Shown here piece by piece: positions 1,926 through 32,517 of a stretch of DNA of 32,517 nucleotides. This DNA is from Chiloscyllium plagiosum (taxonomy: Eukaryota): assembly GCF_004010195.1 (NCBI RefSeq), contig NW_025214724.1:1-32517 (forward strand), read 5' to 3'. A program made the position numbers and the translations under genes. The notes below the pieces were generated by a model that ran no database searches, was not told the DNA's origin, and saw only the letters and a program-made list of their open reading frames with translations. Position 1 is the first letter of the stretch. Every line of letters begins with the position of its first letter.

Positions 1926-2080
1926 GAGCAGGGATCGATATTTTGGGCATAACCCTTCATCAGGGCTTATGCCCAAAATGTCAACTCTCCTGCTCCTCGG
2001 ATGCTGCCTGACCTGCTGTGCTTTTCCAGTGCCACACTTTTCAACTCTGATCTCCAGCATCTGCAATCCTCACTTTCTCC
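1926..2080 (+). mobile_element. Penelope-like pLTR remnant, family A, fold-back with two decayed hammerhead motifs
   Basis: Minus strand reads CTGATGAAGGGTTATGCCCAAAATATCGA (1935-1963). It abuts plus-strand GGGCTTATGCCCAAAATGTCAA and the shared family body CTCCTGCTCCTCGGATGCTGCCTGACCTGCTGTGCTTTTCCAG, also seen near 9910, 12226, 13020 and 20600. Confidence 0.8.
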
Positions 2081-2459
2081 TAGAAATTGCATCTATCAAT
2101 TGGTAGCAGGACCTGAACGGGGACAGGTAGCACAACCTTCTGTTACAATTTCACTTGAGCAGACAATGCCCATTAGGGAAGTGAGAGAAAGCACAGTGAG
2201 AATTTGGGCTACCTCACTGAGAGGAATTGGATCACTGCAATTTGTTTGTGGATAGTTAACTATCTGATCTCTAATCACCCAAATTTATTTTCACTTCCAA
2301 ATTTCACATGGTTTTGGCCATCTCTTTGCTTCCTCACTACCTAAAAATATTCAAACAAAATTACTGACCAAGTGTGCTTGGTTTTATGTCACTCACAAAC
2401 TTGCATAGTATGATTTCATAAACAAAGGTTGTTAATTTGTTTTGGTTGCACTGATTGAG

Positions 2460-4070
2460 AAATGGATGTTGACGTGGACAGCAGGAGAACTCTGTTCTTC
2501 CCTGGGTCTTAAAAGTGGTGGCTAATGAGATTGTGGATGCATTGACTTCCATCACACTGGAAAGTAACAAATATAACCTTGTTCAAGAAGTGAGGGAGGC
2601 AGAAAATAGGAAACTATCAACAAATTGATTTGATGTCTGTCATGGAAAGGTGTCAATCATTAGTGGCACCTGGAAAAATTCAAATTCATCAGTTAGAATC
2701 AGCTTGGTTTTGTGAAAGATCAGTGGTGTTTAATCAATTTAATGGAACTCCTTGAAGGAGTAACTCAGGCTGTGGATAAGGGAAAGCTGTTGATGTTATG
2801 TACTGGGCTTTCCAGAACATATTCAATCAGGTTCCGCACAAAAAGGTTATTGCACAAAGTCAGAGTTCATGGTGTACTTGCATTGAAAAATGATTAGCTG
2901 GTTGGAGAACACAAGCAGCATGCATAAAGGGGTCTTTCTCAGATTGGCAGGATCTGACAAGATAGGTTCCATGGTGACCTATGCTGGGCTATCAATGCTT
3001 TACAATTTACATCAAAGAAAACATGAAGTTGTTCACATTAGCAGTGAATTATTTAAATGGATAGCAACTGCAAAATTCCAAGCTGCAGGGGGATATAAGT
3101 GATTTAGAACATGAATCACAAAAAATATTATGCAAGGTACAACAAATCATTAAGAAGGACAATGGAATATTACAACAAGACTTAAAAGTAAGGATGTTAT
3201 GCTTCAATTATATATAGGATTGGTGAAATTACTCCTCAAATACTGCGTGCAGTTTTTGTTTCTTTATTTAAAGAAGGATAGAAATGCTTTATTGGCTACT
3301 CACAGGTCATTTACTCGATTGTTACTGAAACAAATGGGTCATCTTATGAGGGAGGACTGGATAGACTGGAGTTCTTTTTGCTGGAAATCAGAAGAGTGAG
3401 GGGTAGATTGACTGAGTGTTTAAGATCTTGAGTGGTTTTGACAAGGTAAGGATGTTTACTCCTGTGGGTCACTCCAAAACTACTGCATGCAGTTTTAAAA
3501 TCAAGGGTCACCCTTATAGTATAGGGTTGAGGGTAAATACTTCTTCTCAGTTGTTTGTGTAACTTTGAAATCTCTGTCTCAGAAGGCAGTGGAGGCAGTA
3601 TCATTAAATATTTTTTAAAGCAGATAGATTCTTGTGAAGCAAGGGAATCACATGTTACTGGGGTAAATAGGAATGTGGAATTCTGAAGATAAACAGGTTG
3701 ACTGTGATCTTAGATTAGATTACTTACAGTGTGGAAACAGGCCCTTCGGCCCAACAAGTCCACACTGACCCTCCGAAGAGCAACCCACCCAGACCCATTC
3801 TCCTACATCTAATACCACGGGCAATTTAGCATGACCAATTCACCTAAACTCCACATCTTTGGACTGTGGGAGGAAACCGGAGCACCTGGAGGAAACACAC
3901 GCAGACACGGGAAGAATGTGCAAACTCCACACAGATAGTTGCCTGAGGCAGGGATTGAAGCCGGGTCTCTGGCGCTGTGAGGCAGCAGTGCTAACCACTG
4001 AGCCACAGTGCCGATCTTATTGAATAGTGAAAGGAAAGCCAAATGGCCAATTTCTGCTACTAATTCATAA
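2460..4070 (+). mobile_element. CR1 LINE ORF2 (RT) and 3' end, decayed, interrupted by a SINE at 3713-4012
   Basis: Frameshifted CR1 RT motifs: LKVVANEIVDAL, LFKK..RQKIGNY, CLINLMELLEGVTQAVDKG, KRLLHKVRVHG, LQLYIGLVKLLLKYCVQF (consensus-like LYRALVRPHLEYCVQFW). Confidence 0.85.
3713..4012 (-). mobile_element. HE1-like tRNA-derived V-SINE
   Basis: Minus strand starts GGCACTGTGGCTCAGTGGTTAGCAC (A box) with a B-box-like GCTTCAATCCC and an ATCTA-repeat tail. TSD GATCTTA at 3706-3712 and 4013-4019. Similar to four other copies in the window. Confidence 0.9.
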
Positions 4071-4454
4071 GGTGGGAATGAGAAAAAGGAACTTTAAATC
4101 CACCTTACCAGGCAAACAAATTATTGTCTCACCTACAAGTCTGCACTTCCAACACTCTAACACAAAGTCTGAGCCATTCACCTCGAGAATAGGCTGTTAA
4201 CCTGAAATATGCTGACTCACGGTTAACTAACTACTGTTCATATTTCCTTTCCAACCACAAACAGGACAAACGTATTTCTTCCTGACCAGGCATTTTCTGA
4301 TCTTTGAAGTCTGTTTTCAAAGCTGCGTGAACATTATACATTTTCTTCATTTTCTTGTTCCTTTCAGATGTTTTAGTGTTTGTATTTATTAATGAAAGGG
4401 CCGTAATGTCCACTGCAAGTGTTGTGCTGTATGTCGTTTTGTGTCTCTAGTGAT

Positions 4455-4669
4455 TGTGATGAAGTCAGCCAGATGGACCACATAGAATATGAGTTCCCTG
4501 ATTGGAGCTGTTAATCTGGTCCAATCAGGGAGCTCTGGCTGACAGATAAGAACATCCTGGCCACTCTGAGAGCTGGTTCTGAGGGAACTGGATTGGTGTC
4601 AAAGACTCTTCACGTGAAAATAAAGGATGACTTAGTGATGAGATACTAGCCTCTCTGGAGTTATTTTCA
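4455..4669 (+). mobile_element. Solo LTR (Gypsy-type)
   Basis: TG...CA termini, internal CCAAT and AATAAA, flanked by GTGAT (4450-4454) and GTGAA (4670-4674), a 5-bp TSD with one mismatch. Confidence 0.7.
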
Positions 4670-5248
4670 GTGAATTTTCCTAATAAGTTAGGGGAGACTT
4701 ATCTATATGATAAAGAATGCATGTGCGATGTCTTTTTGTCCCGAGAAAATTGAAACACTCATGTTTTTTAGACTTAAATATCTGGAAATTCATCAAGTAT
4801 ATTTCTAGCAAGTCTCCATGAGCTACTGGACTGATGCAAAGTTGGTTGATACCAGTCTTCAGTGTGACAATCAATAAGGCACTCTGGACATACATACATA
4901 CTCAAAATATTGAGCTCCTAGATCTTTAGAAATAATATAAGATAGCATTTCTGTTTCTTCCAAAGAAAATGCCTCTTTATCAATGTAACCATTTTAATCA
5001 TTTACATGTTTATATATATGAAAGAAAATTAAAGAAAGAAGATTTAGCATATATCTTAGATTGTTTCCTTCTTTGAAATGTTAAATATGGTAATGTTTAG
5101 GTGATAAAATGTTGTGCCTCCATCTTATAGATTTGATAGTCATTGATTTTGGTGATGAGTTGGCATGCTGCCCAGTGATGTTGTGCATAGTGCTCCTGGT
5201 ATTAAATGAGTTGTGCTTCATCCTTTAAACACAGCCTTACTTGATGGG

Positions 5249-5428
5249 CATGATGTGGACGTGCCGATGTTGGACTGGGATGGACAAAGTTAAAAATTAC
5301 ACATCACCAGATTGTAGTCCAACAATCAGGACTAGCTACTTGATGACGGAGCAGCGCTCTCAGAGCTTGTGCTTCCAAATAAACCTGTTAGACTATAATC
5401 TGGTGTTGTATGACCTTTTTTAACTTGT
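5249..5428 (-). mobile_element. Penelope-like pLTR remnant, family B, fold-back with a dead hammerhead
   Basis: Diverged copy of the 26475-26876 element. Inverted arms ACAAAGTTAAAAATTACACATCACCAGATTGTAGTCCAACA and TGTTAGACTATAATCTGGTGTTGTATGACCTTTTTTAACTTGT. Decayed core TTGATGACGGAGCAGCGCTCTCAGAGCTTG at about 5340-5369. Confidence 0.8.
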
Positions 5429-5797
5429 GGGATCATTGTTGCTGTTACACTACATGTTGGTGATGTTAATGTTGTCTTGTTGATTAGTAAGTTGTTGGTT
5501 TTTCCAGCTTGGGTGTAGGTTGAATTCTGTTCCTTTTTATTGGTGTTTCAGTTTTGATCATAATGATGGATGACCTTGAAATTTCAGTTTCATCAACACC
5601 TTGACTGTGTCTCTAGAATAGAGACTGAAGACATTCTCAAGACAGATCTCTTACAATTTGGCCAGAACGAGCTTGAGAAGTTGAAGTTGGAAACTGCTGA
5701 AGATAAGCAATTACAAGTGTTGCAAAAGACAAGGATCGTCTGACAGTAATCAGGAAGTACCAGAGAATATTTGCTCATATAGTGACAAACTTGGTAT

Positions 5798-6161
5798 ATC
5801 ATAGAATCATAAAATTCCTACAATGTGGAAGCAGGCCATTCAACCCATTGAGTCCACATGCTAACTCCAAAGAGCATCCCAACCAGATCCAGACCCTACC
5901 CTATCCCTGCAACCCTGCTTTTTCCTATGGCTAATCCAACTAGCCTGCACATCCTGGTCACTATGCGAACTTTAGTATGGCCAATCCACCTAACCTGCAC
6001 ATCTCTAGACTGTGGGAGGAAACTGCGTGCCTGGAGGAAACCCACACAGACACAGCGAGAATGTTCAAACTTCACACAGACAGTCGCCTGAGGGTAAAGT
6101 CAAACCTGGGTCCCTGGCGCTGTGAGGCAGCAGTACTAATGACTGAGGCACCATGCTGCCC
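5798..6161 (-). mobile_element. HE1-like V-SINE
   Basis: Same head and body as 3713-4012, with a TCTATGAT-type tail. Interrupts the Gypsy pol frame. Confidence 0.9.
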
Positions 6162-6540
6162 ATGGTGAGTCATTTTCAAGGGTAAACAGGTGCTAAGACC
6201 AAAAGCGTTGTGCTAAAATACAACTGTGTTGCACCAAGGACACATGAGAATTGAAAGCACAAGTGTACATCGTATGTGAATCTGTGTACTGGCCAAGGAT
6301 GACTCAGGATATCCAGTGACTCATGCATTTGAGGCATGTCAAATGTACCAGCCTAAATAGCAAAGGGGGCTTTTACATCCACATGATATTGCTTCCATTG
6401 CTTGGACAAAATTAGCAATGGGCTTACACATGGGAAATAATACATCCCTGTGACAGATTACTCTCCAAAGTTTCCTCTTGTTCAGTGACATAACAACACA
6501 ATGAATGCAACCATCACTGAAACAATGACCATCATTTTCA

Positions 6541-8750
6541 TTAGCTATAACAGAGCAAATATCTTTGATCACTGCTACGCCACTATGAAAAATGCCTACC
6601 ACTCCATCTCCTGCACCCATTTTGGGAACTCTGATCACAGTGCCGTGTTTCTTCTTCCAGCTTACAGGCAAAAGCTCAAGCAGGAGACCTCCTCGCTGAT
6701 ACAGGTCCAGTGCTCTTCAGAGGAGGCAGAGGATCAACTCCAGTGCTGTCTGGAATCAGTTGACCATGTTCAAACTGTCCGCAGGTACCTTGGACGAGTA
6801 TGCCACCACCATCACAGATGTTATCAGAAAGTGTGTGGGGGACTAAGGAAGTCATTCAGGTGTTCCCCAACATGAAACCCTGGATGAATCAGGACATGCA
6901 GAATCTGCTAAAAACCAGCCGTGAGGCCTTCAGATCATGAGACCCACTCAAATGTAAGGAATCCAAGTATGACCTTAGCAGAGCCATTAAGAAAGCCAAG
7001 GACCAATGCTGATCCAAACTAGAGACCCAGACAGACACCCAGAGACTATGGCAAGGACTGAATGACATCACAGGTTCTAAAAGAGACAGTGCAAGATAGC
7101 AGACGATGACATATCCCTCCCAAATCTTCTCAACACCTTCTATGTTTGCTTTGAGCACAATTTTAGTGGAGAGGTAACATCTATTCCAATAAGTCCTGAT
7201 GAACCTATCCCAACAATCACTGCATCATAGGGTCAGATCAGATTTCCTCCGTGTGAATCCAAGGAAGGCGATGGGACCCGACGGAGTACTAGGCCATGCA
7301 CTCAAAACATGCGAAGATCAATTGGCATAGATCTTCTCGGGCATCTTCAACTTCTCCCTGCAGCAGGCCATTGTCCCTGTCTGTTTAAAGAGGGCCAACA
7401 TCATCCCTATGCCTAAGAAGGCTCATGCAGCATGTCTCAATGAGTACCACCCAGTGGCCCTAACTTCGGTGGTCATGAAGTGCTTTGAAAGGCTAGTCAT
7501 GGCATTAACCAACTCCAGCCTCCCATTACTCTTGACCCACTCCAATTTGCCGAACAGATCCATGTTAGATGACATACACTTGCCCTTCACTCCTTCCTAG
7601 TACATCGTGACACCAAGAACAGCTATATAAGAATCCTATTCATTGACTACAGTTCAGCTTTCAACGCTACTATCTCCTCAAGACTGATTACTAATATTAG
7701 TGATCTTGGACTACGCTCCACATTCTACAACTGGATCCTTAGTTTCCTGACCCACAGGCCACATTCAGTGAAGACTTGAGACAATATTTCATCCTCAATT
7801 ACACTCAACACTGGAGCCTCCCAGGGGTGTGTACTCAGCCCTATACTGTACTCACTATATACCCATGACTGCATCGCCAAATACCCGACTAATGCCATTT
7901 ACAAGTTCACTGATGACACCACCATAGTCGGTCAAATCTCATATGGCAACAAAAACAGACTACAGACGGGAGATGGAAGACCTGGAAAAATGGTACACTG
8001 AGAACAACCTAGCTCTCAATGCCGGCAAAATCAAGGATCTCTCATTATTAGCGTTCGCCGGGATGTTATTCATGCCCCCCCTACACATTAACAGCACAGA
8101 GGTGGAACAAGGGGACAGTGTCAAGCTCCTGGGAGTGGTCATTCGCAACAAGCTTTCTTGGGCTCTTCATGTGGTCTCACTGGTAACAAAGGCCAAACAA
8201 CGTCTCTTCTTCCTCAGGCAGCTGAGGAAATTTGGCACGAAGGCAAATACCCTTGCCAACTTTTACAGGTGTGCCATCGAGAGCATTCTGTCTGGATGTA
8301 TCACTACCTGGTATGGCAACTGTACCATTCGAGATCGGAGACGGTTACAGAGAGTGATGAACTCGGCCCGGACAATCACAAAGGCCAACCTCCCATCTAC
8401 AGAATCAATCTACCTGGCCCTCTGTCAAGGAAAGGCCACTAGCATTCTCAAAAATCCATCCCACTCTGGCAATGTTTTTCTACAACCTCTACCATCGGGG
8501 AGAAGATACAGAAGCCTGAACACATGCACCAGCTGGTTTCAAAACAGTCTCTACCCTACTGTTGTTAGAATACTGAATGGATTCACAAACTCTTAACATT
8601 CACCTGTACCTGTGTTTTTCTTTTTGCCGCTGTTTACCTATTATTTACTTATCTATATAGGCTACTTAACTATGTGATCTGCTTGTATTGCTCACAAGAC
8701 AAAGCTTTTCACTGTGCCTCGGTACACATGACAATAAATTCAATTCAATT
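6541..8750 (+). mobile_element. Rex1/Babar LINE, 5'-truncated; endonuclease end and RT with stops and frameshifts
   Basis: FDHCYATMKNAY...HFGNSDHSAVFLLPAYRQKL (endonuclease end); PKKAHAACLNEYHPVALTSVVMKCFERLV; FIDYSSAFN; TGASQGCVLSPILYSLYTHDC; YKFTDDTTIVG; C-terminal ORF 7943-8596 ending LPSGRRYRS. Tail GACAATAAA followed by TTCAA repeats. Confidence 0.93.
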
Positions 8751-9592
8751 TATTTCGAATAATGTCTGATGACAGAATCATTGGCAAAGAATTCCAAGGT
8801 ACACAAAGTGGGGAGTGACTCATATCACATCACCACCTCACTATCCATGCTGAAACAATCCAGCAGAATATAAGGTATGTATCATAAAATCCATGCTCAT
8901 CAAATGTCGAGCAACGAAACAAGATTCTGCATCGCACTGCTAAATTTTTGTGCAGCACCAATATGCAGGAAATTATCATGCCGAGCACAATCTATGCTTG
9001 GAGTGCAAATGTCAATAAGATTGTCTAGAAACCAAATGTACAACCATTTCAAGGCACAGGATATTCTTCTTTAGCAACAAAGTAGAATGAAAGAGACACA
9101 GGACCAGCAGTCAGGTAGAGAACTACCAGAAAATACACATTGGGCAGAGAGTGTGAATCAGAAAACCAGTCACAAATCCTTGGATACCAGCAATGGTCTC
9201 TAAAATCTGTGATCATTTTAAGGCTAAAAGATGGAGGATTCTGTACTGACCAAGGGGTGTATTTAAATGTTGTCACGAGTGAAGTTTCCTCATCAAGCTT
9301 CATGTTGCAGTTGTAGCTATCTCTGGCCTCAGGCTTGTTAAGAAGTTCTGTTGTGTGATCATTTCCAGTGTTGGGATTGGATAGTCATTGGACTTTATTT
9401 CTTGATTAAGTTATATGGATTACAGGCAATTTCTTAGCCTTCCATTTATTTTCTCTCTTACCACAGTGGAATTTACCCATTTGAGAAGCTCTTTGACATA
9501 GATAGTGACTGTTCTTCCATCTTTTGGAGTACTCTTTAAAGCTTTTCATTTAATTGCATGTTACATGAGGCAAGAATCTTCGGTTTCTTCAC

Positions 9593-10003
9593 TATTCGAG
9601 AGGGTGGAGCTGGAAAAGCACAGCAGATCAGGCTGCTCCAAGGAGCAGGAGAATCAACGTTTCAGGCAAGAGCCCTTCATCAGGAATGAGGCTTGTGTGC
9701 CAAGGGGGTGCAGAGATAAATGGGAGGGGGGTGGGGCTGGGGGGAAGGTAGCTGAGAGTTGGTAAGTTGGAGCTTTCCCAGCTCCCTTACCCTAGCCCCA
9801 GCTCTTGCACCAGCCCTTCCCCCAGCTCCAGCCCCCTCCCATTTATCTTCCACCCCCTCGGCTCACAAGCCTCATTCCTGATGAAGGGTTCTTGCCCAAA
9901 ATACTGATTCTCCTGCTCCTCGGATGCTGTCTGACCTGCTGAGCTTTTCCAGCACCACACTCTCAACTGTGATCTCGAGCATCTACAGTCCTCACTTGCT
10001 CCA
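9593..10003 (+). mobile_element. Penelope-like pLTR fold-back insertion, family A
   Basis: Inverted arms at about 9596-9750 and 9812-9966, then a 37-nt unpaired tail. Exact 11-bp TSD GGTTTCTTCAC at 9582-9592 and 10004-10014. Confidence 0.88.
9652..9687 (-). ncRNA. Minimal hammerhead ribozyme motif, near-intact
   Basis: Reads AUUC-CUGAUGA-A-GGGC-UCUU-GCCU-GAAACGUU-GAUU. Core intact, G.U at the base of stem II, GUU triplet, weak stem I. Confidence 0.65.
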
Positions 10004-10440
10004 GGTTTCTTCACAAGGTCAATCGTGTCATGATACTCAAAATCTAAGTTATCTAACTCTCTCATCAAAACATTCTGCATGCATTTGTACAGGACCTTTG
10101 TAACTTTTCAATGGGTCTATTATGTGCCTCCACTCTCATCACATTGTTTACTGAGATATGCTATAGCTCTTTGCAATGACCCAATCCTAAGACAGCAGGC
10201 CAAATTGTTTCAGTGATGGAAAACATCCATATAATATCCTTTCCTTTATGCATCCCTTTGGTTTGTTTTTAGCTGTCGAATTTGATTTTCCTCATACAGT
10301 ATTGGCACAACATTGTTCATTTTCAAAATAACTTTCCTCAACTATTTTCCTTCACATTTTCAGTAAAGACCTATTGCTATAGCCTGACTGGGGGTGATGT
10401 TACTCTGTGCTATCGTATCAAGTGTTGGTTTCTGATTTAT

Positions 10441-11388
10441 GACCATAATAAGACCTTAAAGAGTAGGAACAGGAGTAAGCTGTTCGCTCCATTGAAGCTG
10501 CTCCACCATTCAATAGGATTATGACATTCCTCAGGTCCACTTTCCTGCCCTTTGCTCAAAACCCTTGGAAGCCTCTACTCGTCAAGAATCTATTTGTCTC
10601 AGCCTTAAATATTCACAAGGAATCTGTCCCCATAGCTTTCTGTGGCAAGGAATTCTGAAGACTTACAACGCTTTGAGAGAAAAAAAATCCTCATCTCTGT
10701 CCTAAATTGGCACCCCTTTATTCTGAAACTATACCAAGACTCTCCATGATGGGAAACGTCCTCTCAGCATTTACCCTGTCAAACCCCTTAAGAACCCAAA
10801 TGTTTCAATGAGATCATTTCTCATTCTTCTCAACTCTAATGAGTAGAGTCCTAACCTGAAGCCTCTGCTCATAAGTAAATCCCTCCATATTACTGTTCAT
10901 CAGAATCTTCTCTGAACTGCTTCAGGGAACAAAACTTCTCACAGTATTCCAGATGTGGTCACACCAGCACCTAGTACGGTTGCAATAAGACTTCCCTACT
11001 CTCATACTCGAACCTCCTTGAATAAGAATTAACATTGCATTCGCCTTCTTGGTTACCAGCTACACCCGTGTGCTAGCTTTTTGTTTCATGTACCCCCAGT
11101 CTCTTTATATTGTAGCTTTTTGCAGTTTTTCTCCACTTAAAGAATAGTCTGTTCTGTTGCTCTCAAAAATGACTAACTTTGTACCTTCCCACATTATACT
11201 CCACCGGACAACGTTTTCCCACTTATCTCTCCACAAGCTGTTTGTATTCCTCCTACAACTTGCCTTTCCACCGAGTTGAAATACCCAACAGCCATGATTA
11301 AATTGCAGAGTGGACTCGATGGGCCGAGAGGCCTTACTTCCACTCCCATGTCTTATGGTCTTATTTTTGCATAATCTGCAAATCTGGC
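10441..11388 (-). mobile_element. CR1 LINE 3' fragment, with a short plus-strand CR1 3' end at about 11273-11363
   Basis: CR1-type tail TCTTATGGTC in both orientations; minus-strand LEYCEKF-like and ARFADY motifs. Confidence 0.8.
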
Positions 11389-11389
11389 T

Positions 11390-12050: not shown

Positions 12051-12190
12051 TTCCAGTGCCATTCTCTTCTTCATCAGAGTGAAGCTCCAATAAAGGTAAA
12101 AACAGGTGGTCTTTGGGATGTTGTGAATGTATGTAAACAATCAGCCTCAGAGATCTGCCAGTGAGAGAGATTGAATCAGTGGCTAAAAAC

Positions 12191-12224
12191 ATCCTGAAGA
12201 AGGGCTCATGCCCGAAACGTCGAT
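12191..12224 (+). ncRNA. Minimal type I hammerhead ribozyme, intact core; predicted cleavage after C12221
   Basis: AUC-CUGAAGA-A-GGGC-UCAU-GCCC-GAA-ACGU-C-GAU: stem I AUC/GAU, stem II GGGC/GCCC, palindromic ACGU stem III, GUC triplet. Confidence 0.85.
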
Positions 12225-12282
12225 TCTCCTGCTCCTCAGATGCTGCCTAACCTGCTGTGCTTTTCCAGCACCACACCCTCGA
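12193..12282 (+). mobile_element. 90-bp Penelope-like pLTR insertion, family A
   Basis: Exact 9-bp TSD TAAAAACAT at 12184-12192 and 12283-12291; family A body. Confidence 0.9.
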
Positions 12283-12742
12283 TAAAAACATTTGTGGCAG
12301 GAAATGAAAATAATGGCTTTGATGTTCACGATATTGAGTCAGAGAAAATATCTGTCCAAACTGTATTGTATATTGGGCACGCAATGTTACAACTTGGAGC
12401 CCAGTTTGGGTCAGGGGACACTATTAAGCCAAATGATAGTGAGTTAGAGTTAAGGGTGTTCAACGTACGTGCGGAAACTGATGTTGTCAGGTGGTGTCAA
12501 AGAGGTGCAGCATGTGTTGAAAAAAAAAGGATTAGGTATAGATCCTTGGAGAAACCACTATCAACACTGTAGAAGTGGGAAAAGAAACTCTTTTACAGGT
12601 GACTTCCTAGGGACAACTGGATAGAGAAGAAAGAAACCAGCTAAGTAAAATCATATCCAGTTGGATGATGATCAAGGAGGGATGCTGGAATTATATGGCC
12701 AACCATATCTAAGGTGCAATAGGTCAAGGAGACATGGTTTAT

Positions 12743-12957
12743 CAGCATCTATGGAGAGAGAAAAGAGAAACAGAATTACAATTCCATGTTTGATATGACA
12801 CTACTTTGGAACTGAAAATAATGCAGTAGAGTCATATCAGACTCGAAACATTTCATTAATTTCTCTTTCCACAGATGCTGCCAGGCATTCTGAGTTTCTC
12901 CAGCACTTTCAGTTCTTCTTTCAGATTCCTAGCATTTATAGTACTTAGCTTTTATTT
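12743..12957 (+). mobile_element. Old Penelope-like pLTR fold-back remnant, family D
   Basis: Stem II GAGTC-ATATCA-GACTC followed by GAAACATT (12829-12852), then CACAGATGCTGCCAG...CTCCAGCACTTTC. Decayed inverted arm CAGCATCTATGGAGAGAG on the left. Confidence 0.65.
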
Positions 12958-13006
12958 GGCTAATTATAATTCTCACACTACAGCAGAATAACATGTTTAA
13001 TAGTGA

Positions 13007-13133
13007 CAAGATTGTGGTGCTGGAAAAGCACAATACGTCAGGCAGCATCCGAGGAGCAGGAAAACTGAAGTTTCGGGCAAAAGCCCTTTATCAGGACTCT
13101 AAACTCCAGTATCTGCAGTCCTCACTTTTGCCT
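13007..13133. mobile_element. Penelope-like pLTR insertion, family A: inverted body plus direct tail
   Basis: Exact 14-bp TSD ATGTTTAATAGTGA at 12993-13006 and 13134-13147. Minus-strand mutated core CTGATAAAGGGCTTTTGCCCGAAACTTC. Confidence 0.9.
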
Positions 13134-14520: not shown

Positions 14521-14538
14521 AAATTCAACTGAAGAAGA

Positions 14539-14671
14539 TCTGGAGAAGAGTCATTTGTGATTTGAATTGTTAACCGTTTCTCTTGTCACAGCTGCTGCTA
14601 GACGTCTGAATTCTTCCAGCACTTTCTGGTTTTATTCCAGATTCTAGCATCTGCAGTATTTCACTTGTATT
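14539..14671 (+). mobile_element. Old Penelope-like pLTR remnant, family D
   Basis: Decayed core TCTGGAGAAGAGTCATTTGTGATTTGAATTGTTAAC followed by CCAGCACTTTCTG...CAGATTCTAGCATCTGCAGTATTT. Confidence 0.65.
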
Positions 14672-17000: not shown

Positions 17001-17172
17001 AGAGTCAAGATTTCAAGTCCAGTGACCCTTTGTCAGAATTGTTCTGATGAAGGATCACAGGACTCAAAATTTTAACTCTGCTTCTCTCTCTTTGGATGTT
17101 GCCAGACTTGCCAAGTTTCTGCAGCACTTTCTGTTGGCGTTCCAGGCTTCCAGAAGACCTTTACTTTTATTT
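17001..17172 (+). mobile_element. Old Penelope-like pLTR fold-back remnant, family D, two decayed hammerheads on opposite strands
   Basis: Minus strand TTCTGACAAAGGGTCACTGGACTTGAAATCTTGACTCT (17001-17038) and plus strand TTCTGATGAAGGATCACAGGACTCAAAATTTTAACTCT (17042-17079), 3 bp apart. Confidence 0.75.
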
Positions 17173-19046: not shown

Positions 19047-19325
19047 GGGTGGCACAGTAATGCAGCGGTTAGCATTGCTGCCTTTCAGCACCAGGGACCG
19101 GGTTCAATTCCAGCCTTGGCTGACTACCTATGTGGAGTTTGTATGTTCTCCCCATGTCTGCATGAGTTTCCTCCAGTTTCCTCCCACAGCCCAAAGATGT
19201 GCAGGTCAGGTGGATTGGCCATGCTAAACATGGGGTTATCAGGATTGGGTAGGCAGGTGGGTTGCCCTTCGTAGGGTCAGTACAGAATCAATGGGCTGTA
19301 TCGCCTCTTCCTAGGAATTCTATGA
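19047..19325 (+). mobile_element. HE1-like V-SINE, older copy
   Basis: GGCACAGTAATGCAGCGGTTAGCATTGCTGCC...GGTTCAATTCC head, V-domain-like TGTGGAGTTTGTATGTTCTCCCC, ATTCTATGA tail. Confidence 0.85.
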
Positions 19326-20578: not shown

Positions 20579-20728
20579 AGAGTCAAGATTAGAGTGGTGC
20601 TGGAAAAGCACTGCAGGTCTGACAGCATCCGAGGAGCAGGAAAATTGACGTTTTGGTCAAAAAGCCTTTTCCAGCACCACTCTAATCTTGACTCTAATTG
20701 CCAGCATCTGCATTACTCACTTCTCCCT
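20579..20728 (+). mobile_element. Penelope-like pLTR fold-back insertion, family A, hammerhead core deleted
   Basis: Perfect 30-bp inverted repeat at 20579-20608 and 20666-20695, then a 33-nt tail. TSD ATCTGTC(T/A)GTGAGAG at 20568-20582 and 20729-20743, partly overlapping the left arm. Confidence 0.88.
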
Positions 20729-21039
20729 ATCTGTCAGTGAGAGGCCAGTCCTATCAAAATTTAAACAGGGCTCCCCAGCCTTTATAGGTATTCAGATCAC
20801 CGATTCTCACTTTCAATCGCTCTTTCCAACTTAGTTCCTTGAACTTAACTGAGGCAATTGCAACAAACCAACACAGATTTCTCTTGAGTTAGCAAAGTGA
20901 TCCTAGCTTGTGTTGCAACAATCTTCAGCTGACGAGACTAATTTGACTAAAAGCTGAGGCCCAACTTCAGCTGGACCACGATTCAACATATTCTTGAACA
21001 GAAAACGTTTCTAGAACCAATAAGCACTATCATTGCAGC

Positions 21040-23706: not shown

Positions 23707-24010
23707 GATTAGATTAGATTCCCTACAGTGTGGAAATAGGCCATTCGGCCTAACAAGTCCACACCGACCCTCCGAAGAGTAACCCACCCAGACCCATTTC
23801 CCTCTGACTAGTGCACCTAACACTATGGGCAATCTAGAATGGCCAATTCACCTGACCTGCACATCTTTGGGCTATGTGAGGAAACTGGAGTACCTGGAGG
23901 AAACCCAAGCAGACACTGGGAGAATATGCAAACTCTACACAGACAGTCGCCCAAGGCTGGAATTGAACCTGGAACCTTGGCGCTGTGAGGCAGCAGTGCT
24001 AACCACTGAG
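23707..24010 (-). mobile_element. HE1-like V-SINE, about 10 nt 5'-truncated, inside CR1
   Basis: Closely similar to 3713-4012; ATCTA-repeat tail. Confidence 0.92.
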
Positions 24011-24320
24011 TATGTGGAAACCGAAACTCAGAACTAAACATTCAGGGGTATTTGTGACCTTTTGAAAGGACAGGCAGAAAGAAATTGGTGGCAGAGTTGT
24101 ATTGTTAGTATGTGATATAATTAGCATATCAGCAAGAAATGATCTTGGATCAGATCATGTAGAATCCATACAGGTGGATATACGAAATAACAATGGGCAG
24201 AAGACACTAGTGGGAGTAGTGTATAGGCCCCAAACAGTAGCTGTTTTGAAGACAGAGAATACATCAAAAAACAATATGATCATGTAAATACATTAATCAT
24301 GGTAACTTTACTCTTTATGT

Positions 24321-24640: not shown

Positions 24641-26528
24641 TCATGTAGATTGGGAAAATCAAATTGGCTGAGTAAGAACTTATAGAATATATTTAGGATG
24701 GTTTCCTCGAACAATATGTTAAGAATAATACAAGGGATGTTGCTATTTTGGATTGGTTAATGTATAATGCGGGAGGTTTAATAAATGATATCAGAATAAA
24801 GGATCTCACAGATGACAGTAACCATACCATGGTAGAATTAAGAATTCAGTTTGAAAGTGAGAATCTGGATCAGAAATGTTAAACTTAAAATAAGGATAGT
24901 TCACATAGAAATGAGAGCAGAATTGGTTGGAGTGAACTGATAAAGGAGTTTAACAGAAGAGATGGGAGCCTATAAATGGCAGAGGAGTTGAATAAATACT
25001 TTGCATCACTCTTCAAAGTAGAGGCCTCAAATAGCATTCCAAACTTACTAAGTAATCAAGAGGTTAAGACCGGGGTGATGGAGGAAATAAGCACCATAAT
25101 TGTCATGAGAGAAAATGGATTCAGGAAACTAATGGGGCTAAAGGCTGCTAAGTTCCCTGGTCACAATGGATTGTGTCCTCAAATATTTGAGAAAATAGTT
25201 GCGGAAATGGTGACTGAACTGGTAGAAAACTTAAAGGAATCCTTAGGTTCTGGAAAAGTCCCAGAGGATTAGAAGTTTCTCAACATCACCCTTATTCAAA
25301 ATGGGAGGGAGACAAAAAATGTTTGCATTTATAAGCCAGTTATCCTAACATTTGTTATTGGGAAAATATTAGAGTATATCATGAAGGATGTAATACAGGA
25401 TTGGCTAAGCAACAAATGACAGAGGTAGGAAGAATAGGCATTTTCAGGAAGTCAACCCATAACTAATGGAGTGCCAAAGGTATGTGTTGGGGTCATAACG
25501 AATGACAATAAATGTTAAAGACATGAAAAAAGAAAATGAATGTATTTTCACCAGGTTTGCAGGTAACCCAAAATTGCATGGCAAGTAGTTAGCATGACAT
25601 AAGGAGTCTATAGAGTGATACTGACAGGTTAAGTGAATGGGCAAAAACTTGGCAGATGGAATATTGTGTGGAAAGTGGGCTTTGGCAGAAAGAATTAGAA
25701 GAACTGAATATTACTTACGTGGAAATGACTGCAGAAAGGTGCAGCACAGAGTGATTTGGAGGTTCGAGTGCATGAATCACAAGAAGTCAGCATCCACTTT
25801 TAGGAGGTAATAGGGAAAGCAAATGGAATGTAGTCTTCTACTTCCCTTGAACAGTGAAGAGTTTTGGTCCCTTTATTTACTGGGATTGGAGACAATCTTC
25901 AAAACGTTCACTTGGCTGAAGGACTGTCTTATGAGGAAAGGTTGAGTGGGTTAGGCCTGCCCTCATTGGAATTTAGAAGAATGAGAGGTGACCTTATTGA
26001 AACACACAACTTTCTTAGAGGACTAACAGGTAGATATGCTGAGGTTATTTCTTCTTGTGGGAGGTTCTAGGATCAGAAGGCATAATCTTCAGGTAAGGAG
26101 TCATCCATTTATGACAGAGATGAGGAGGGTAGTCAATCTGTGGAATTTCACTGAAGAGGGTTGAGAAGTCTGGGTCATTAAGTATATTCAAAGCTATGAA
26201 AGACAGATTTCTAATCATTAAAGGAATAAAGGATAATGGGGTTAAAGAAGGAAAATTGAATTGAGAATTATCAGATCAGCCACGATCTCATTGAATGGTG
26301 CAGCACACCTGATGGGCTGAACGGCCTACTTCTGCTCCTGTGTCTTATGATCTTATGCTGGGGGCAATCAGATACTGCCATTCTGTCCCAGAAATATGAA
26401 GATGAAACATGCTGTTGTTATGAAAAAGGAATGGCTTAATTTGCTGAAGGCTGGAAGGAACCAATGTCTAGGCAAAGTTAAAAATCACACAACACCAGGT
26501 TATAGTCCAACAGGTTTAATTGGAAGCA

Positions 26529-26563
26529 CACTCGCTTTCGGAGCGACGCTCCTTCATCAGGTG
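26529..26563 (-). ncRNA. Hammerhead motif with U16.1 changed to G, predicted inactive
   Basis: Mirror copy reads CAC-CUGAUGA-A-GGAGCGUCGCUCC-GAAAGCGA-GUG; the change is at 26533. Confidence 0.65.
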
Positions 26564-26752
26564 ATTGTGGAGGGCTCGATCGTAACACAGAATTTATAGC
26601 TGAAATTTGTAGTGTGATGTAACTGAAATTATACATTGAAGAATTGATGTATAATTCTTCAATTATAATCAATTCTTCAATGTATAATTTCAGTTACATC
26701 ACACCGCAAATTTTAGCTATAAATTCTGTGTTACGATCGAGCCCTCCACAAT

Positions 26753-26787
26753 CACCTGATGAAGGAGCGTCGCTCCGAAAGCTAGTG
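26753..26787 (+). ncRNA. Minimal type I hammerhead ribozyme, intact core; predicted cleavage after A26784
   Basis: CAC-CUGAUGA-A-GGAGC-GUC-GCUCC-GAA-AGCU-A-GUG: stem I CAC/GUG, 5-bp stem II, palindromic AGCU stem III, CUA triplet. Confidence 0.82.
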
Positions 26788-27419
26788 TGCTTCCAATTAA
26801 ACCTGTTGGACTATAACCTGGTGTTGTGTGATTTTTAACTTTGTACACCCCAGTCCAACACCGGCATCTCCGAATCATGTCTAGGCACACATGGCAAAGT
26901 GTACCAATGCAACAATGGCATCATTTGTCAGCCAGTGGCACTTAATTCTGATGAGATTGTGTTAATTCTCAATCAAGGATTATATACTTCCCTATTTTCT
27001 GGCAGTATGAATTGAAGACTCTGTTTTAATTGGATGAAATTTTCTTTTATTTTAAATTTAAATTGAGAGAATGGTGTTTTAGGCAAACTGAACTATTGGT
27101 GGTCATGGTTACTGTGGGAAAAGGGGAAGCTACTGAGTAATAATGAAGTGTCAACTGAAGTGGCCTTGTGTGAACTTACATGATTCTTATTGACTGATGT
27201 TGCGGTGCATCTGCTGGAAAGGGCATTGGTTGTGGCTGAGCAAAACTCCAGAAAGCTTGTTTTATTTCCTTTTTCAGCTCAGCCTTGTTCAGATTGTGTT
27301 TTCATTGTCCAGTGTGACAGATCCTTTTGCAATTGTCATATCATGGGAAAATGTAAGTTATGAAAGAGATTAAAAAATTTCATCTACCACACGAAGTCCT
27401 AATTGATGGCATGCCATCA

Positions 27420-27600
27420 GTTTTGTTTTATTTGTTCATGGGCTGCAAGCACGGCTGGGCAGGTAATTTCTAATGACATTCGAAAGGTAGTGTCAGTCAG
27501 GTTTTGGAAATGCTGCAGTCTGTGTCATGTGGATACATCCACGGCATTGTCAGGAAGGGAATTCCAGCATTTTGACTCTCAATACTGAAAGGTTAGTAAT
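27420..27600 (-). mobile_element. CR1/L2-group LINE 3' end fragment
   Basis: Reverse complement resembles 21520-21690 (AATGCTGGAATTCCCTTCC...CCACATGACACAGACTGCAGC...CCCATGAACAAATAAAA). Confidence 0.65.
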
Positions 27601-27659
27601 ACATCAACGCCTCAGGATAGACAGAGGCATTGCCTTGCACTAATATTAAGTTTTGCTGC

Positions 27660-27990
27660 AGAAATATAAGCTTAAAATCTCGCTGAGCCTCCAGAGTTAA
27701 GAGGACAGAAAGGCTATTTTTGAACGAGTTGCTAAACCAAAGCTCAATTTGCTTTTTCAGATGAGTGTAAGAGATCTCATGGCACTATTTCAATAAAAAG
27801 CAGAGGAAATTGTTTCATTATCCTGACCAATATTTATACCTCAATTCAATATCATTGCCAGTTTATTTGCTCATAATCACATTGCTGTTCAGGGAAATGT
27901 TGTGCACAGGTTGGTTGCTTTATTTTCTACAACTGCACTTATGCTTTGAATACACTTCTTAGGCTGTAAAGAAATTTGTATACAAATGCA
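27660..27990 (+). mobile_element. DeuSINE (SacSINE1/AmnSINE1-like) relic
   Basis: Recognised Deu-domain-like string GATCTCATGGCACTATTT...CCTGACCAATATTTATACCTCAA...ATCACATTGCTGTT...GGCTGTAAAG...TACAAATGCA. Confidence 0.7.
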
Positions 27991-28291
27991 GGATAGAATT
28001 TTGCATTTTCAGTTTAAGAGTTTTGTTGAATGAAATTCATGATCCCCAGTTTGCTATTTTTCAGGTGACTTTTCTCATGCAAACTTCCACTCTTCACCTC
28101 ATTATTGACACAACCAGGCTCCCTCTCAGGGAATTGCCTGGCAGGAAAGGCAGAAATGCTTTCTAATATTGGAACATTGCGACATTGATGCCACTGGTGT
28201 CATACTTACAGTCCAGCTGCTCAGCACTTCAGACACTGCAAACCCTGTTCTGCTTATCACATTGAAATGCTCCACAATTATTGTTGAGGAT

Positions 28292-28522
28292 TTGGCCCAT
28301 GCAGAAAGGAAAACTCACAGCTGCTTTGTTGGCAGAGACTTGGAAGTATTTGTGAATAGGGTGGTGGGCGCACCTTTTTCTTCTGATTGCTGCAAGAATC
28401 CACACCACCAGACACAGTCAGCTTGGACTGATAAAGTGGCTCAGGTCAGTGCTGTGTTCCAGGGGAAATGGGACATTCAACGTTGCAGAAAAAAGGTGGA
28501 AGATCTCTTGTGCTCCATGAGG
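28292..28522 (+). pseudogene. Myb/SANT-like DNA-binding exon relic of a PIF/Harbinger transposon (NAIF1/MSANTD-like)
   Basis: RKTHSCFVGRDLEVFVNRV...HHQTQSAWTDKVAQVSAVFQGKWDIQRCRKKVEDL fits the R..F..LE.L / AW..VA..VSA / QCRKK..DL pattern and ends at a splice donor AGG|GTAAGG. Confidence 0.72.
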
Positions 28523-30926
28523 GTAAGGTCCAACATATTCCCTCTGCTACCTTACACTCACAGGGCCACCACTCACACTAACTCTGTCACTGCACACATC
28601 TCTCACCAAGGCTCATGGACTACATCTCTCATTATTGAATGCATCCTGTCCACTCAATAATTTTCACCCACCTCATCCCCCTAAAGTACTAATTCCTCCT
28701 GATTTCTGCGCTTACTGCCCACTCAGTGGAGACAACTCACCACCTCTTCTGCTCTTTCATCCATTTCAATCAGATTCAATTTCTCCCTTTTTCTCATTAC
28801 CGGAGACTTTGCTCACCTTGCACATTTCCACAACACCCTGACCGAGCTGAACTGCAAGATAATGAATCCCTGGACTCAATAATTAAGCAATATCAACTCA
28901 CTGAAGTAGAATTGGATGGGCCTCTTCACTGACTGTGGCAAGACTCCTTTACTGACTGGATCACCCTTGACCCCAGTAGATGGGTTTTACTCTCCTTTGA
29001 TTTTTGGGCATAGCCATTTGTTTGAAGCATATACAGTATGTTTTCTGTGTACATTTTTAGCACAGGTTGCAAGTCTGACATTGCAAGTAGCACGATGCTG
29101 TCCACTGATAAGTCCACAGACCTTCACTATTCAATGCTTTCTATCACGACAAACTACCTACCTCTCCCTCTGCACTATAGAGCAATACCAGATACAGAGG
29201 CTCAGCCTATCACCAAGTGCTGAAGATCATGTACTCTAAAAAGAACTGGTGGAAGCATCCAAGTGAGCACAAAGTGAGTGAGCACTAAGAAAGCAAACTA
29301 AAGGCCATAAGATGCAACCTGTACCCATGCATGAGAAACATATGCGTCCCTTTGTGCAGCGACTTGGAAGAAGCATGTAATGTGTAGATTTCCTGAGCTT
29401 CAAAATGAAGTATTGAAGGACTGAAATAATGTGCGAGTTGGTCCAAGAGCAGGACTGAAGAAGTAGTGAGGGTGTTGGTTTGCCACAGTTAATTGGCATG
29501 TAAAAAGGGTCGAGAGGTTGACGTCAATGGAACATGGAGGAAAATCAACTGAAGACATAGTTGGATGATGGCTGTGACAAGAAGTTGACAGGGTGCAGCT
29601 GTCAAGTACCTATTCTGTTTTACATGTCAAAATTTACACCAGCTCATTTCCCAAGGATGAGGAGAATTGGAAATGGTGAATAAATAGGGTGTATTGGACC
29701 ATTAATAACATGGAAATGAACAGAAAACAAGTAGTTGCCACTCACTAGCAAGATTTCAAAGTTGCCATTGCCAGGGAAAAATTAGAATAAAGTATGTCAA
29801 AATTCTCACTTTATTTTCCCACCTTTCTTGTCATTGCCCACATGAGGTGAGATACGCTCCCCACAATCTCTTTCTTTTTGTTTCTTTCCTTCCTAGTGAC
29901 AATGTTTCAATTGGAAAATTATCTGCTAAAGGTTAAATTAAAGACAAACTGATCCTGACATTAAAGTTAACATTTGGGATCTTCTTTTCTTAGGCAACTA
30001 TTTTATTTAAATTGGAATTTTAAAGAGCCTATGTAAGAAAGATATAGATTTTTAGGACACAAGCCTCCAAACATCATTCCAGTATTAGACATGTTACTGG
30101 TAGCAGGGAGGTTGCTATACATTGAATGCATGATTCACGACAGGGAAGAAATGAAATTTGGAAGGTCTGTTATCTTTGATTACGACAAAATGGCTACGTT
30201 CAGCAGCACAAGCAGAGACATTGGTGGGCCGAATTTTTCAGTTCAAGCAAACCAAACGTGAGGATTAAAAACTTGGCATTGGACTAACTGGTTTGAAGCT
30301 ACTGGAATCAAGCCAATTTGTTTCACTCCCCTGTATATCCAATAGTGATACAGGTTTTAAATATCATCCAGGTATTTCTTTCAGAAACAGACCACTTCGC
30401 TGGAATCTGATCCTATTTACATTTTTAGAAAACAACCCCATGGCAACTCAAAAACTTCCTTCTACATCTTTGAATATTTTAAAATGATATATGAACTATT
30501 TTATCACAGCATTTCTTTCTGTAAACAATTTCTGATGACAAAGCAAATGTGAGAGAGGGAGAGAAATAAATTTGGGCTCAGATTTTTGTCCCTTTATGGA
30601 GATAGGATTGCGGTTGGGAATATCAATTATCTTGTTCTCCATTTTGAATTTTCAGTGCCTTCCCAGCCTCTAACTATTTTCTAATAGCCATTTCATAGGT
30701 CAGAAATACTTGGATCATGAGATCATCATTGACAGCCCCAGCAGAAATTAGATTTTTCTATCTTAGGATATTTTTATAGAGGTGGGTGCATTTTAACAGT
30801 TCATGCATTCCATGGGAAACCTGCTGAGGAATCTAGAATATTCTGAGAGTAGAGTGTAAAATATCATTATTAGATGCTACCTTGTAAGTTGGACTGATTA
30901 TAGAGCTTTGCTCTGGAAAGGTAATC

Positions 30927-31246
30927 ATCATAGAATCCCAAAATGTGGAAACAGGCCTTTCAGCCCAACACCTCCACACCAACCCTCTGAAGAGTAACCA
31001 TCTAGACCCATTCGCCCTCCCCTATATTTACCCCTGACTAATGCACCTAACCTACACAACCCTGAACACTATAGGCAATTTAGCATAGCCAATCCACCTA
31101 ACCTGCACATCGTTGGACTGTGGAGGAAACCCAATCTGATGTGGGGAGCATGTGCAAACTCCACATAGACAGTCACTTGAGGCTGGAATTGAACCTGGGT
31201 CCCTGCTGCTGTGAGGCAGCAGTGCTAACCACTGAGCCATCGTGCC
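30927..31246 (-). mobile_element. HE1-like V-SINE with internal deletion
   Basis: Minus-strand GGCACGATGGCTCAGTGGTTAGCAC...GGTTCAATTCC head; same body as the other copies. Confidence 0.9.
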
Positions 31247-31944
31247 AACCATTAGGTTGACTAACGTGGTGTAAATACAGAGATGCATTAATGATTGTTC
31301 CTATTGGGCAAAAGATTTTAGAATTCTTGTGTTATGATGACCAGAAATAATTTAAAAGTCCTCAGCCCTTTAAATTTGAAAAAGAAAAATCCTTCTTTCT
31401 CTTTAGAAACCCCAATATATTTGCTCTGTGACTGCTTTGATTGACAGGACATCTGGTGTATCTGAATAACATGCTCAATCCATTTTTGTATTTTAAAAGG
31501 CTTCATTGTCTTTTTTTTTGACAGCTGAGGTCAACATAGTTTCTTTTAATGAGTTCTAAACAAGACAGAAACTCTTAGCTGAAGCTGTGTTCAAGTTTGA
31601 CTGATGGTGTTAAGAAGTTAGTCAAGGATTATCTATCTTTGATGTAGTTAATGAATAGAATTCAACAATGGATAGACTACGAGGTAATTTAAGTTATTTT
31701 TCATTAAGTAAAAGCTTTTGAAAAATATGGTTTATTAAACTGTTCAAGGTGTTATTTTTAATAATCATTTCAAAAGACTCCGATTGCTATTACATGGTCC
31801 CTGAGACCTATGCATAGTGGATACTGGATGATTAGATTTAGGAGATAGATAGGGACATGAAAGGGGAATGGGTAATCTGAAATGACATACAGAATATAAT
31901 GGGAAATATGAGGTGTTTTGGAGAGGGCAAGAACCATCACTTAA

Positions 31945-32340
31945 AATGAGCAACTCTCTCATTCTGAACCAATATCCGCTAGTCTCTCAGCATCCAAGCT
32001 GTCAAGCCTCCTCAGTAGGATCACACTCATTCATTAAATTCACAACTCATTCCACCTGACTCCAAGAATTACAGGCCCAAACTGTTCAACCTTTCACATA
32101 AAACAATTCCCTAATCTTAACAATTAACCTAGGGAAACTTATTTTAACGCCTTCAATGCAAATATTCCCTCCTTAAACAAGCAGAACAAAATTGTACATA
32201 GTATTCTTGGTGTGATCACAAAGTGCCCTGCGCAGTGGTAGCAAGTCTTTTATATTTCCTGTAGTAAAGGTCAACATTCCATTTGTCTTCCTAACTACTT
32301 CCTGTACCTGAATGTTAACTTTTTGATTTCATGCATGTTC
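31945..32340 (-). mobile_element. CR1 LINE RT C-terminal fragment
   Basis: Minus-strand VQEVVRKTNGMLTF and EYYVQFCSACLRREY-like relics; resembles 10800-11100. Confidence 0.7.
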
Positions 32341-32363
32341 TTTCAACAGTTAAATAATATTTA

Positions 32364-32517
32364 GTTTGTTGTGGTTGTGTTTGCCGAGCTGGGAATTTGT
32401 GTTGCAGACGTTTCGTCCCCTGTCTAGGTGACATCCTCAGTGCTTGGGAGCCTCCTATGAAGCGCTTCTGTGATCTTTCCTCCGGCATTTGTAGTGGTTT
32501 GAATCTGCCGCTTCCGG
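32364..32517 (-). mobile_element. Penelope-like pLTR, family C, runs off the window edge
   Basis: Abrupt switch to CpG-retaining sequence containing an intact hammerhead on the minus strand. Confidence 0.78.
32404..32443 (-). ncRNA. Minimal type I hammerhead ribozyme, intact core; predicted cleavage between 32407 and 32406
   Basis: GCA-CUGAGGA-U-GUCACCU-AGAC-AGGGGAC-GAA-ACGU-C-UGC: stem I GCA/UGC, 7-bp stem II with one A.G mismatch, palindromic ACGU, GUC triplet. Confidence 0.85.

Follow-up and report, generated by a model that had tools for sequence, protein, structure and literature searches.

Hammerhead-bearing short insertions in a Chiloscyllium plagiosum contig as probable truncated 3′ ends of Penelope-like elements

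Minimal hammerhead motifs have been described in the pseudo-long terminal repeats (pLTRs) of metazoan Penelope-like elements (PLEs), so that the motif class, its solo occurrence and its opposite-strand pairs are already known (Cervera and De la Pena 2014, PMC4209133). For the axolotl, 126,247 type I motifs were reported (PMC7229834). Retrozymes that lack long terminal repeats (non-LTR retrozymes) were reported in one chondrichthyan genome (10.64898/2026.07.22.740005 / PMC7229834), and a whale-shark preprint reports a PLE expansion (10.1101/443036). We analysed an entire contig (NW_025214724.1, 32.5 kb; hereafter the window) of the 3.56-Gb genome of Chiloscyllium plagiosum, in which a sequence-only reading had proposed one hammerhead fold on short repeats at 11 loci. 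The 11 loci are, with good confidence, the 5′-truncated 3′ ends of PLEs, consisting of the pLTR with or without a tail of 29–36 nt, and the hammerhead was likely carried along uncut and then decays.

The motif shares the features of those in PMC4209133: a type I core, an extra base between positions 9 and 10.1, the G10.1–C11.1 pair and a palindromic 15.2/16.2. Most are likewise single motifs from truncated PLEs, and the opposite-strand pairs lie 100–700 bp apart. The numbers differ. About 4,000 minimal motifs in the coelacanth and about 9,000 in Xenopus are given there, and the estimate of about 100,000 intact cores here is well above these vertebrate counts, the descriptors being different. 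Sharks are not named in the accessible text of PMC4209133. The Poseidon element PAc of Anolis carolinensis (Frangieh et al. 2024, PMC11167929) is also close. In PAc, both target strands are extended, reverse transcription proceeds from two internal sites bounding the tail, and uncut RNA is the substrate. As in PAc, the open reading frame (ORF) of family C starts at stem II, and two 3′ ends bound the tail, which is 30–40 nt there. A pile-up of 5′ ends at the edge of the ribozyme and a poly(A) site behind it are seen here and are not reported for PAc in the accessible text. In the literature searched, no account of shark PLE hammerheads, of a 5′ pile-up or strong-stop model, or of pLTR polyadenylation was found; Repbase/Dfam, subscription papers and the supplements of PMC4209133 and of the 2026 preprint may list the families.

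Profile hidden Markov models (HMMs) built from genomic copies detected 16 arms in exactly 11 window loci, and a self-comparison agreed. All 11 coordinates proposed earlier match four repeat groups, as claimed. Families A and D are, however, homologous from GAAA onward (E about 2e-12), D being by its sequence an old relative of A, so that the four groups represent three independent lineages. Genome searches with each family showed copies dispersed over many scaffolds. The density was estimated from 80 stretches of 10 kb at round coordinates of large scaffolds (768,405 non-gap bases). This sample holds 189 loci (108 of A, 35 of D, 29 of B and 17 of C), or one per 4.1 kb, in a count that omits 27 of 284 HMM hits not reaching the 3′ part; the reversed sample sequence gave no HMM match. 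The loci cover at least 6% of the sampled bases. Extrapolation, which presumes that unplaced contigs resemble the sampled scaffolds, gives about 840,000 loci in the genome, with 107,000 (68,000–159,000) intact cores under a strict descriptor and 204,000 under a relaxed one. The population is thus very dense genome-wide, as had been claimed, whereas the window with one locus per 3 kb shows no local excess. A local hot spot was considered and rejected (8.0 loci expected, P(≥11) = 0.18). Other Poseidon-like families, which are more divergent and have hammerhead variants of their own, were also seen (L182 near 6153, L059, L188, L240, L251 and L253); the four families therefore undercount the total.

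The repeats had been regarded as ORF-less and retrozyme-like. This view did not hold, since the sequence of longer A, B and C copies extends upstream into PLE ORFs for reverse transcriptase (RT) and GIY-YIG nuclease. In family A, a pyrimidine-rich 3′ untranslated region (UTR) of about 190 nt lies upstream, followed by the ORF (L148, L159, L289) with RT motifs (MDIQSLY, GVAMG, YIDD), a C-x4-C-x2-C linker and GIY-YIG (YIGETG); its Pfam RVT_1 match (E = 1.4e-5) is below the cut-off. The UTR of family B is longer, and is followed by the ORF end (L165, L179), RT (L279), and the linker and nuclease (L302). The nuclease end of B is related to that of A. The linker reads CHHRKCKAC or CHRRNCKTC in A and CHGRRCKTC in B. 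In family C, the nuclease ORF lies directly upstream and has no Cys linker. In L315, a gapless full-length copy of C, the pLTRs are direct, the hammerheads lie 2,503 nt from each other and the target duplication is 13 bp long. The single reading frame of this copy has a few stops and runs from the ATG in the first ribozyme through RT (Pfam RVT_1, E = 2.1e-11, above the cut-off) and GIY-YIG to the stop in the second ribozyme. L185 shows an inverted-plus-direct pLTR layout with a 12-bp duplication. This near-full-length C element holds, in its 5′ region, a nested A stub (L185:2236-2370) that has a 10-bp duplication of its own. A link to ORFs with RT and GIY-YIG was thus obtained for A, B and C, including a gapless full-length copy for C, and only indirectly for D.

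By these sequence features, A and B are of the Neptune type and C is of the Penelope/Poseidon type. The Zn-finger-like linker between RT and GIY-YIG in A and B resembles that of Neptune-clade endonuclease-positive (EN+) PLEs (Craig et al. 2021, PMC8557442); it was not seen for D. Apparently long open frames of family C at the places labelled C29, C3, C5 and C20 were assembly gaps and were rejected. The closest named relatives of the family C protein (L315:1457-3157) are bamboo-shark proteins (89–93% identity). Of the next best-scoring proteins, most come from parasitic flatworms (Dicrocoelium, 50%; Schistosoma, 48%; tapeworms, about 40%); a zebra-shark fragment has 59%. The flatworm relatives may reflect horizontal transfer, or merely which PLE ORFs get annotated. 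A PDB sequence search gave nothing significant (best E = 0.23).

The anatomy of the insertions points in the same direction. The 189 sampled loci comprise 128 singles, 53 head-to-head pairs, 3 same-strand pairs and 5 mixed loci. Two 3′ ends, 29–36 nt apart, are found in each of the four families with a bimodal distribution, and the tail is on exactly one arm in 48 of the 53 head-to-head pairs (p = 4e-10). The insertions carry target duplications of 9–15 bp; the window examples are 9, 11, 11 and 14 bp. Long and short copies occur in every distinguishable subfamily of A (A1–A4). Strong 5′ truncation, an inverted 5′ copy and a tail at one end are shared with Neptune-clade EN+ PLEs, and with the target duplication they are known PLE features (PMC8557442, PMC3846280). 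Animal non-LTR retrozymes are similar in being short, non-coding, hammerhead-bearing and pLTR-related (PMC7229834; Li, Clavereau and Pollet 2026, 10.64898/2026.07.22.740005). Retrozymes are, however, arranged in tandem, and those of the 2020 paper (PMC7229834) have canonical type I ribozymes, whereas the window loci occur singly or head-to-head, are minimal and show continuity with PLE ORFs. A tandem-repeat scan (trf) of the window detected no tandem ribozyme array. The same-strand pairs in the sample are few against the head-to-head pairs and singles, and A, B and C are linked to coding sequence; on both counts these families differ from retrozymes.

The features of the window are as follows. 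Loci with arms on both strands are given without an overall strand, and the cores are located by nucleotide C3.

1926..2082: family A head-to-head stub. The left arm, 1926-1965 (−), is short and keeps CUGAUGA, with GAAA changed to AAAA; the right arm, 1962-2082 (+), runs from stem II to the tail. No target duplication longer than 6 bp was found.
5249..5426: family B head-to-head stub, decayed. Left arm 5249-5360 (−), tailed; right arm 5337-5426 (+), broken core.
9593..10004: family A head-to-head insertion whose arms take in part of the 3′ UTR. The left-arm core at 9683 (−) is intact with U.U in stem I, and the right arm at 9878 (+) is broken and tailed; 11-bp target duplication GGTTTCTTCAC (9582, 10004).
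12193..12282, + strand: family A stub, single, whose minimal hammerhead is intact (C3 at 12194, cut predicted after 12221). The 5′ end is at −1, and there is no tail; 9-bp target duplication TAAAAACAT (12184, 12283).
12737..12958: family D head-to-head stub, old. The right arm keeps GAGUC/GACUC and GAAA; CUGANGA is absent.
13007..13133: family A stub. Arm 13008-13098 (−), in which G8 reads A, is joined to an inverted arm made of the tail only, 13096-13133 (+); the target duplication ATGTTTAATAGTGA (12993, 13134) is 14 bp.
14536..14671, + strand: family D single stub, broken core.
17001..17172: family D stub. The tailed arm 17041-17172 (+) keeps CUGAUGA, with GAAA changed to AAAA; short inverted arm 17001-17040.
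20579..20730: family A head-to-head stub with no CUGANGA. Arm 20579-20672 (−); end-plus-tail arm 20666-20730 (+); possible 7-bp duplication ATCTGTC.
26473..26880: family B head-to-head insertion, young, with 176-nt arms that are 98% complementary. The right arm (+) carries the tail and a hammerhead that is intact (C3 at 26756); in the core of the left arm (26560, −), U16.1 reads G; the target duplication ATGTCTAGGCA (26464, 26877) is 11 bp.
26796-26801, + strand: poly(A) signal hexamer ATTAAA in the preceding B locus.
26813 and 26816, + strand: equivalents of the poly(A) addition sites, placed by distance from C3 from RNA reads on the B copy L038.
32364..32517, − strand: 3′ end of a family C (Poseidon-type) element, running off the contig, with the last 30 PLE ORF codons at 32516-32427. 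The intact hammerhead (C3 at 32440) contains both the stop codon of the ORF and the ATG that serves as the start in tandem copies; the locus ends without a tail.

Intact cores were searched with a strict descriptor (CUGANGA, one extra base, stem II, GAAA-N-N-U-H and three stem I pairs). Three cores were detected in the window (12194+, 26756+ and 32440−), and none in any of 100 dinucleotide shuffles of it. The sample of 768 kb gave 24 cores, and its reversed sequence none. When a U.U pair was allowed in stem I, a fourth window core was added (9683−). The sequence-only reading had placed the shared core at all 11 loci, whereas CUGANGA and GAAA are both kept at only 4 of the 11 (9593 left arm, 12193, 26475 right arm and 32364). 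CUGANGA is absent at loci 20579 and 12743, and core-breaking changes are present at 1926, 5249, 13007, 14539 and 17001. The stems described earlier were recovered: AUC/GAU and GGGC/GCCC at 12194+, CAC/GUG and GGAGC/GCUCC at 26756+, GCA/UGC and GUCACCU/AGGGGAC at 32440−, and GAGUC/GACUC near 12829+. Stem III is a loopless palindrome, ACGU or AGCU. The core boxes, the extra base before stem II, G10.1–C11.1 and the self-complementary 15.2/16.2 are all present, and by sequence the motif belongs, as proposed, to the PLE-type minimal hammerheads with a palindromic helix III, carried on short retroinsertions. An Rfam scan of the window gave no hammerhead match up to E = 10, only miRNA-type matches on long hairpins.

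The stem pairs vary between families with the pairing kept. The four families show G-C, G-C, U-A and A-U at stem II pair 2, and C-G, C-G, A-U and U-A at stem I pair 1, in a comparison of only three independent lineages. Within families, stem II pair 2 of D is G-C in 8/52 copies, and stem I pair 3 of A is U-A in 10/101 and A-U in 8/101. The stem I form AUC/GAU does exist at 12194 but is a minority form in A, in which the third pair is U.U in 59/101 sampled copies; at 12193, moreover, two of the three stem I 5′ bases are also part of the target duplication TAAAAACAT. The first stem II pair (10.1–11.1) is most commonly G-C in all four families. At positions 15.2/16.2, A and C have C-G and B has G-C; in D, the pair has mostly decayed to CA/TG. 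The commonest core lesions are of the CpG type: in the sample, G12 is changed to A in 15/101 A copies and 5/25 B copies, and 15.2/16.2 is CA or TG in 37/101 A copies. The G10.1–C11.1 pair and G12 put a CpG on the catalytic guanine, and this likely explains the fast decay of the core. Since most copies are decayed, the possibly working ribozymes are far fewer than the loci. Minimum-energy cofolding of two copies, which is no measure of activity, did not return the hammerhead dimer for any of the three intact cores.

The 5′ ends of the copies are concentrated near the core in A and B. At −14 to +7 of C3, the rate of 5′ ends in A is 75/1995, compared with 35/8086 nt at risk further upstream (8.7-fold), and in B it is 15/477 compared with 14/3682 (8.3-fold). 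The predicted cut site shows no excess of 5′ ends within 3 nt (4/952 in A, at background; 0/217 in B; 0/147 in C). An inverted arm lies within 260 nt of 102/167 short A arms, mostly within 11 nt; the other flanks of short A arms are unrelated, save two pairs. In single copies, the target duplications end at the 5′ boundary. The 5′ boundary near the core is physical. An artefact of unmodelled subfamily UTRs was rejected as the source of the pile-up, because the copies do not share flanks, and inverted arms or duplications fix the junctions. In A, the identity to the upstream sequence of long copies is about 90% at −1/−2 and reaches background by about −9; the common sequence of D ends at −4. 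The 5′ ends of B are smeared from −3 to about −14, and of the 18 single C copies, 4 begin at −23 to −26. The boundary of A and D, at about −4 to −6, falls on TCATTCC and TCAGTTC. The initiator consensus is YYANWYY, and these two sequences appear to fit it, which is weak support as A and D are related. No shared spliced 5′ exon was seen in the flank and junction comparisons. Among the 5′ junctions starting with G, in which a cap-derived extra G was looked for, many are tiny fold-backs.

A polyadenylation site behind the core was found for family B in the RNA run X20, a single-cell poly(A) library from which 4,159 reads, out of about 2% of the run, were used. Poly(A) is attached at +60 and +57 of the B core start in 460 and 380 reads, respectively, at L038:1566-1569; the reads may derive from any B copy and from host read-through. 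The sites lie 12–15 nt past ATTAAA/AATAAA and ahead of a GU-rich stretch, and the local DNA is not A-rich. Among the matches in the loci collected, ATTAAA is present in 89 copies and AATAAA in 9. No pile-up of read starts or ends was listed at the ribozyme in X20, and the depth continues through the core. A second run, X21, gave no reads. For an A copy, no poly(A) end was present among the matches listed; one subfamily of A has AATAAA near the main end. Words of the B sequence occur in runs from four organisms.

Long terminal repeat (LTR) retroelements have terminal R/U5 regions, and their minus-strand strong-stop cDNA ends at the 5′ end of the RNA. As a working analogy, the elements described here also have a terminal repeat with a likely start site, a poly(A) site and, downstream, a site of internal priming. 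Unlike LTR retroelements, PLEs prime from nicked target DNA and not from tRNA, and they lack an integrase; the start site is inferred in the present case. The pile-up of 5′ ends together with the poly(A) site of B suggests an LTR-like R/U5 layout with strong-stop-like stubs. In Drosophila Penelope, a promoter and start site are also in the pLTR, but further upstream and ahead of an intron (PMC2377424).

The following course of insertion is proposed. The PLE protein would nick both target strands, as the biochemistry of the Anolis PLE suggests (PMC11167929). By analogy, each nick would prime reverse transcription at one of two internal sites of an uncut RNA, at the main end or at the tail end. 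These two sites would lie 55–125 nt downstream of the ribozyme, and the resulting cDNA or cDNAs would be joined to the flank or to each other. In the Neptune-type families A and B, and probably in D, the cDNA would often run out 2–14 nt upstream of the core, where the template RNA would start, and such early run-out would leave strong-stop-like stubs of 90–135 bp. Ribozyme activity would require a dimer or the help of protein, and would be confined to the RNA of tandem pLTR–ORF–pLTR copies. Dimer cleavage was reportedly described by Lunse et al. (as cited in PMC6765202). The head-to-head locus 26473-26843 could fold as a 176-bp hairpin. Because solo stubs have no dimer partner and head-to-head stubs would fold into long hairpins, most stubs are likely inert as ribozymes.

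Several points weigh against this interpretation. The Pfam matches to GIY-YIG are weak and below the cut-off (E = 0.019 and 0.043), none was obtained for L302 or L090, and the domain was recognized by motif. The clade calls rest on the linker criterion of PMC8557442 (for C, on the lack of the linker and on an ORF that begins within the ribozyme), by motif rather than by tree. Family D has an ORF remnant upstream in 1 of 101 copies (E = 3e-11; a second match, probably a neighbouring A copy, was excluded), and is otherwise tied to the ORF only via its homology to A. A target duplication of at least 9 bp is detectable in only 17 of 77 single A copies. The zone −14 to +7 was picked after inspecting the data, the D model has no upstream part and hence gives no 5′-end rate, and family C shows no pile-up in the zone (2/444 compared with 18/4737). 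In X20, the depth of B upstream of the core tails off smoothly without a sharp start, and poly(A) libraries with host-gene read-through cannot reveal a start site.

We judge it about an even chance that the Neptune-type RNA starts just before the ribozyme and that the stubs are strong-stop-like products. The PLE origin could also be kept with another cause of the pile-up, namely stalling or template switching of the RT past a folded or protein-bound hammerhead, or 5′-to-3′ trimming of the RNA. The RNA depth running upstream of the core without a step, the short palindromes in the core region, which favour fold-back joins, and the smeared ends of B agree with this explanation, whereas family C, which has the longest stem II, lacks the pile-up at that place, and the A and D boundary weakly fits the initiator consensus. 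We regard stalling or trimming as possible yet clearly less probable than a start site; the remaining weight on the start step goes to separate short masters or to cleavage. Cleavage by the ribozyme itself, creating the template ends of the short insertions, would suit the intact cores with compensatory pairs across families, and one inverted arm of B starts exactly at +29 (L035). The absence of a 5′-end excess at the cut site in A, B and C and of a read pile-up there in X20 argues against it, as does the finding that ribozyme mutants of the Anolis element leave insertion in vitro unaffected (PMC11167929). Cleavage is largely refuted already, and we consider it very improbable.

The sequence-only reading amounts to a different origin, in which the stubs are separate non-autonomous families of the SINE or retrozyme kind, and master RNAs of about 100–140 nt are mobilised in trans by PLE proteins. 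Most copies are indeed short and start at nearly one place, and among 101 D copies no long copy with a common upstream region was found, apart from one pair and the one ORF remnant. Mobilisation in trans by PLE proteins is possible for sequence bounded by pLTRs (PMC3846280), and pLTRs are the source of animal retrozymes (bioRxiv 10.64898/2026.07.22.740005). However, A1–A4 each hold both long and short copies, and the 5′ ends scatter over about 20 nt, at different positions in the two arms of a single insertion. Same-strand pairs are also rare, and tandem arrays are absent, from the window as well. Separate families thus seem unlikely, and truncated PLE 3′ ends remain the preferred reading.

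The start site and the poly(A) site could be combined further. Neptune-type pLTRs might act like retroviral LTRs, with transcription starting just upstream of the hammerhead, polyadenylation about 60 nt after the core start, and the ribozyme in a terminally redundant R. Strong-stop cDNA, made by target-primed reverse transcription at the two downstream sites, would have to jump to the 3′ R, failed jumps would give hundreds of thousands of stubs, and pairing of the palindromic helix III between the 5′ and 3′ ribozymes would keep the RNA ends together during the jump. This proposal is speculative, and we think it rather unlikely in its full form.

Other repeats and frames were observed in the window. 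A dispersed repeat of about 300 bp, which we take to be of the shark HE1/V-SINE type, is present in five copies (3710-4012, 5804-6157, 19063-19281, 23709-24020 and 30924-31246). A 222-codon frame at 7928-8596 matches Pfam ALKBH8_N (E = 1.4e-9), and is presumably the C-terminal part of a Rex1/Babar-type LINE. Short dispersed repeat pairs are located at 10801-10875 / 25928-26004 and 11318-11364 / 26311-26356. Nine further window ORFs gave no Pfam match. Outside the window, a C2H2 zinc-finger array of 370 codons (L083:2047-3156) adjoins a family C copy.

This genome, with its estimated 0.8 million loci and roughly 100,000 intact cores, is a very large natural record of PLE insertion. Poly(A) sites for host transcripts could be supplied by the B copies, which number tens of thousands and could end such transcripts. 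The function of PLE hammerheads has been called unclear (PMC8557442). In the record described here, the 5′ ends avoid the cut site, the Neptune-type ends cluster just ahead of the ribozyme, and the poly(A) site of B lies just behind it. The question of how PLEs regenerate their terminal repeat thus becomes directly testable by mapping of 5′ ends. If true, the LTR-like reading would give the PLE hammerheads a structural role that is independent of cleavage.

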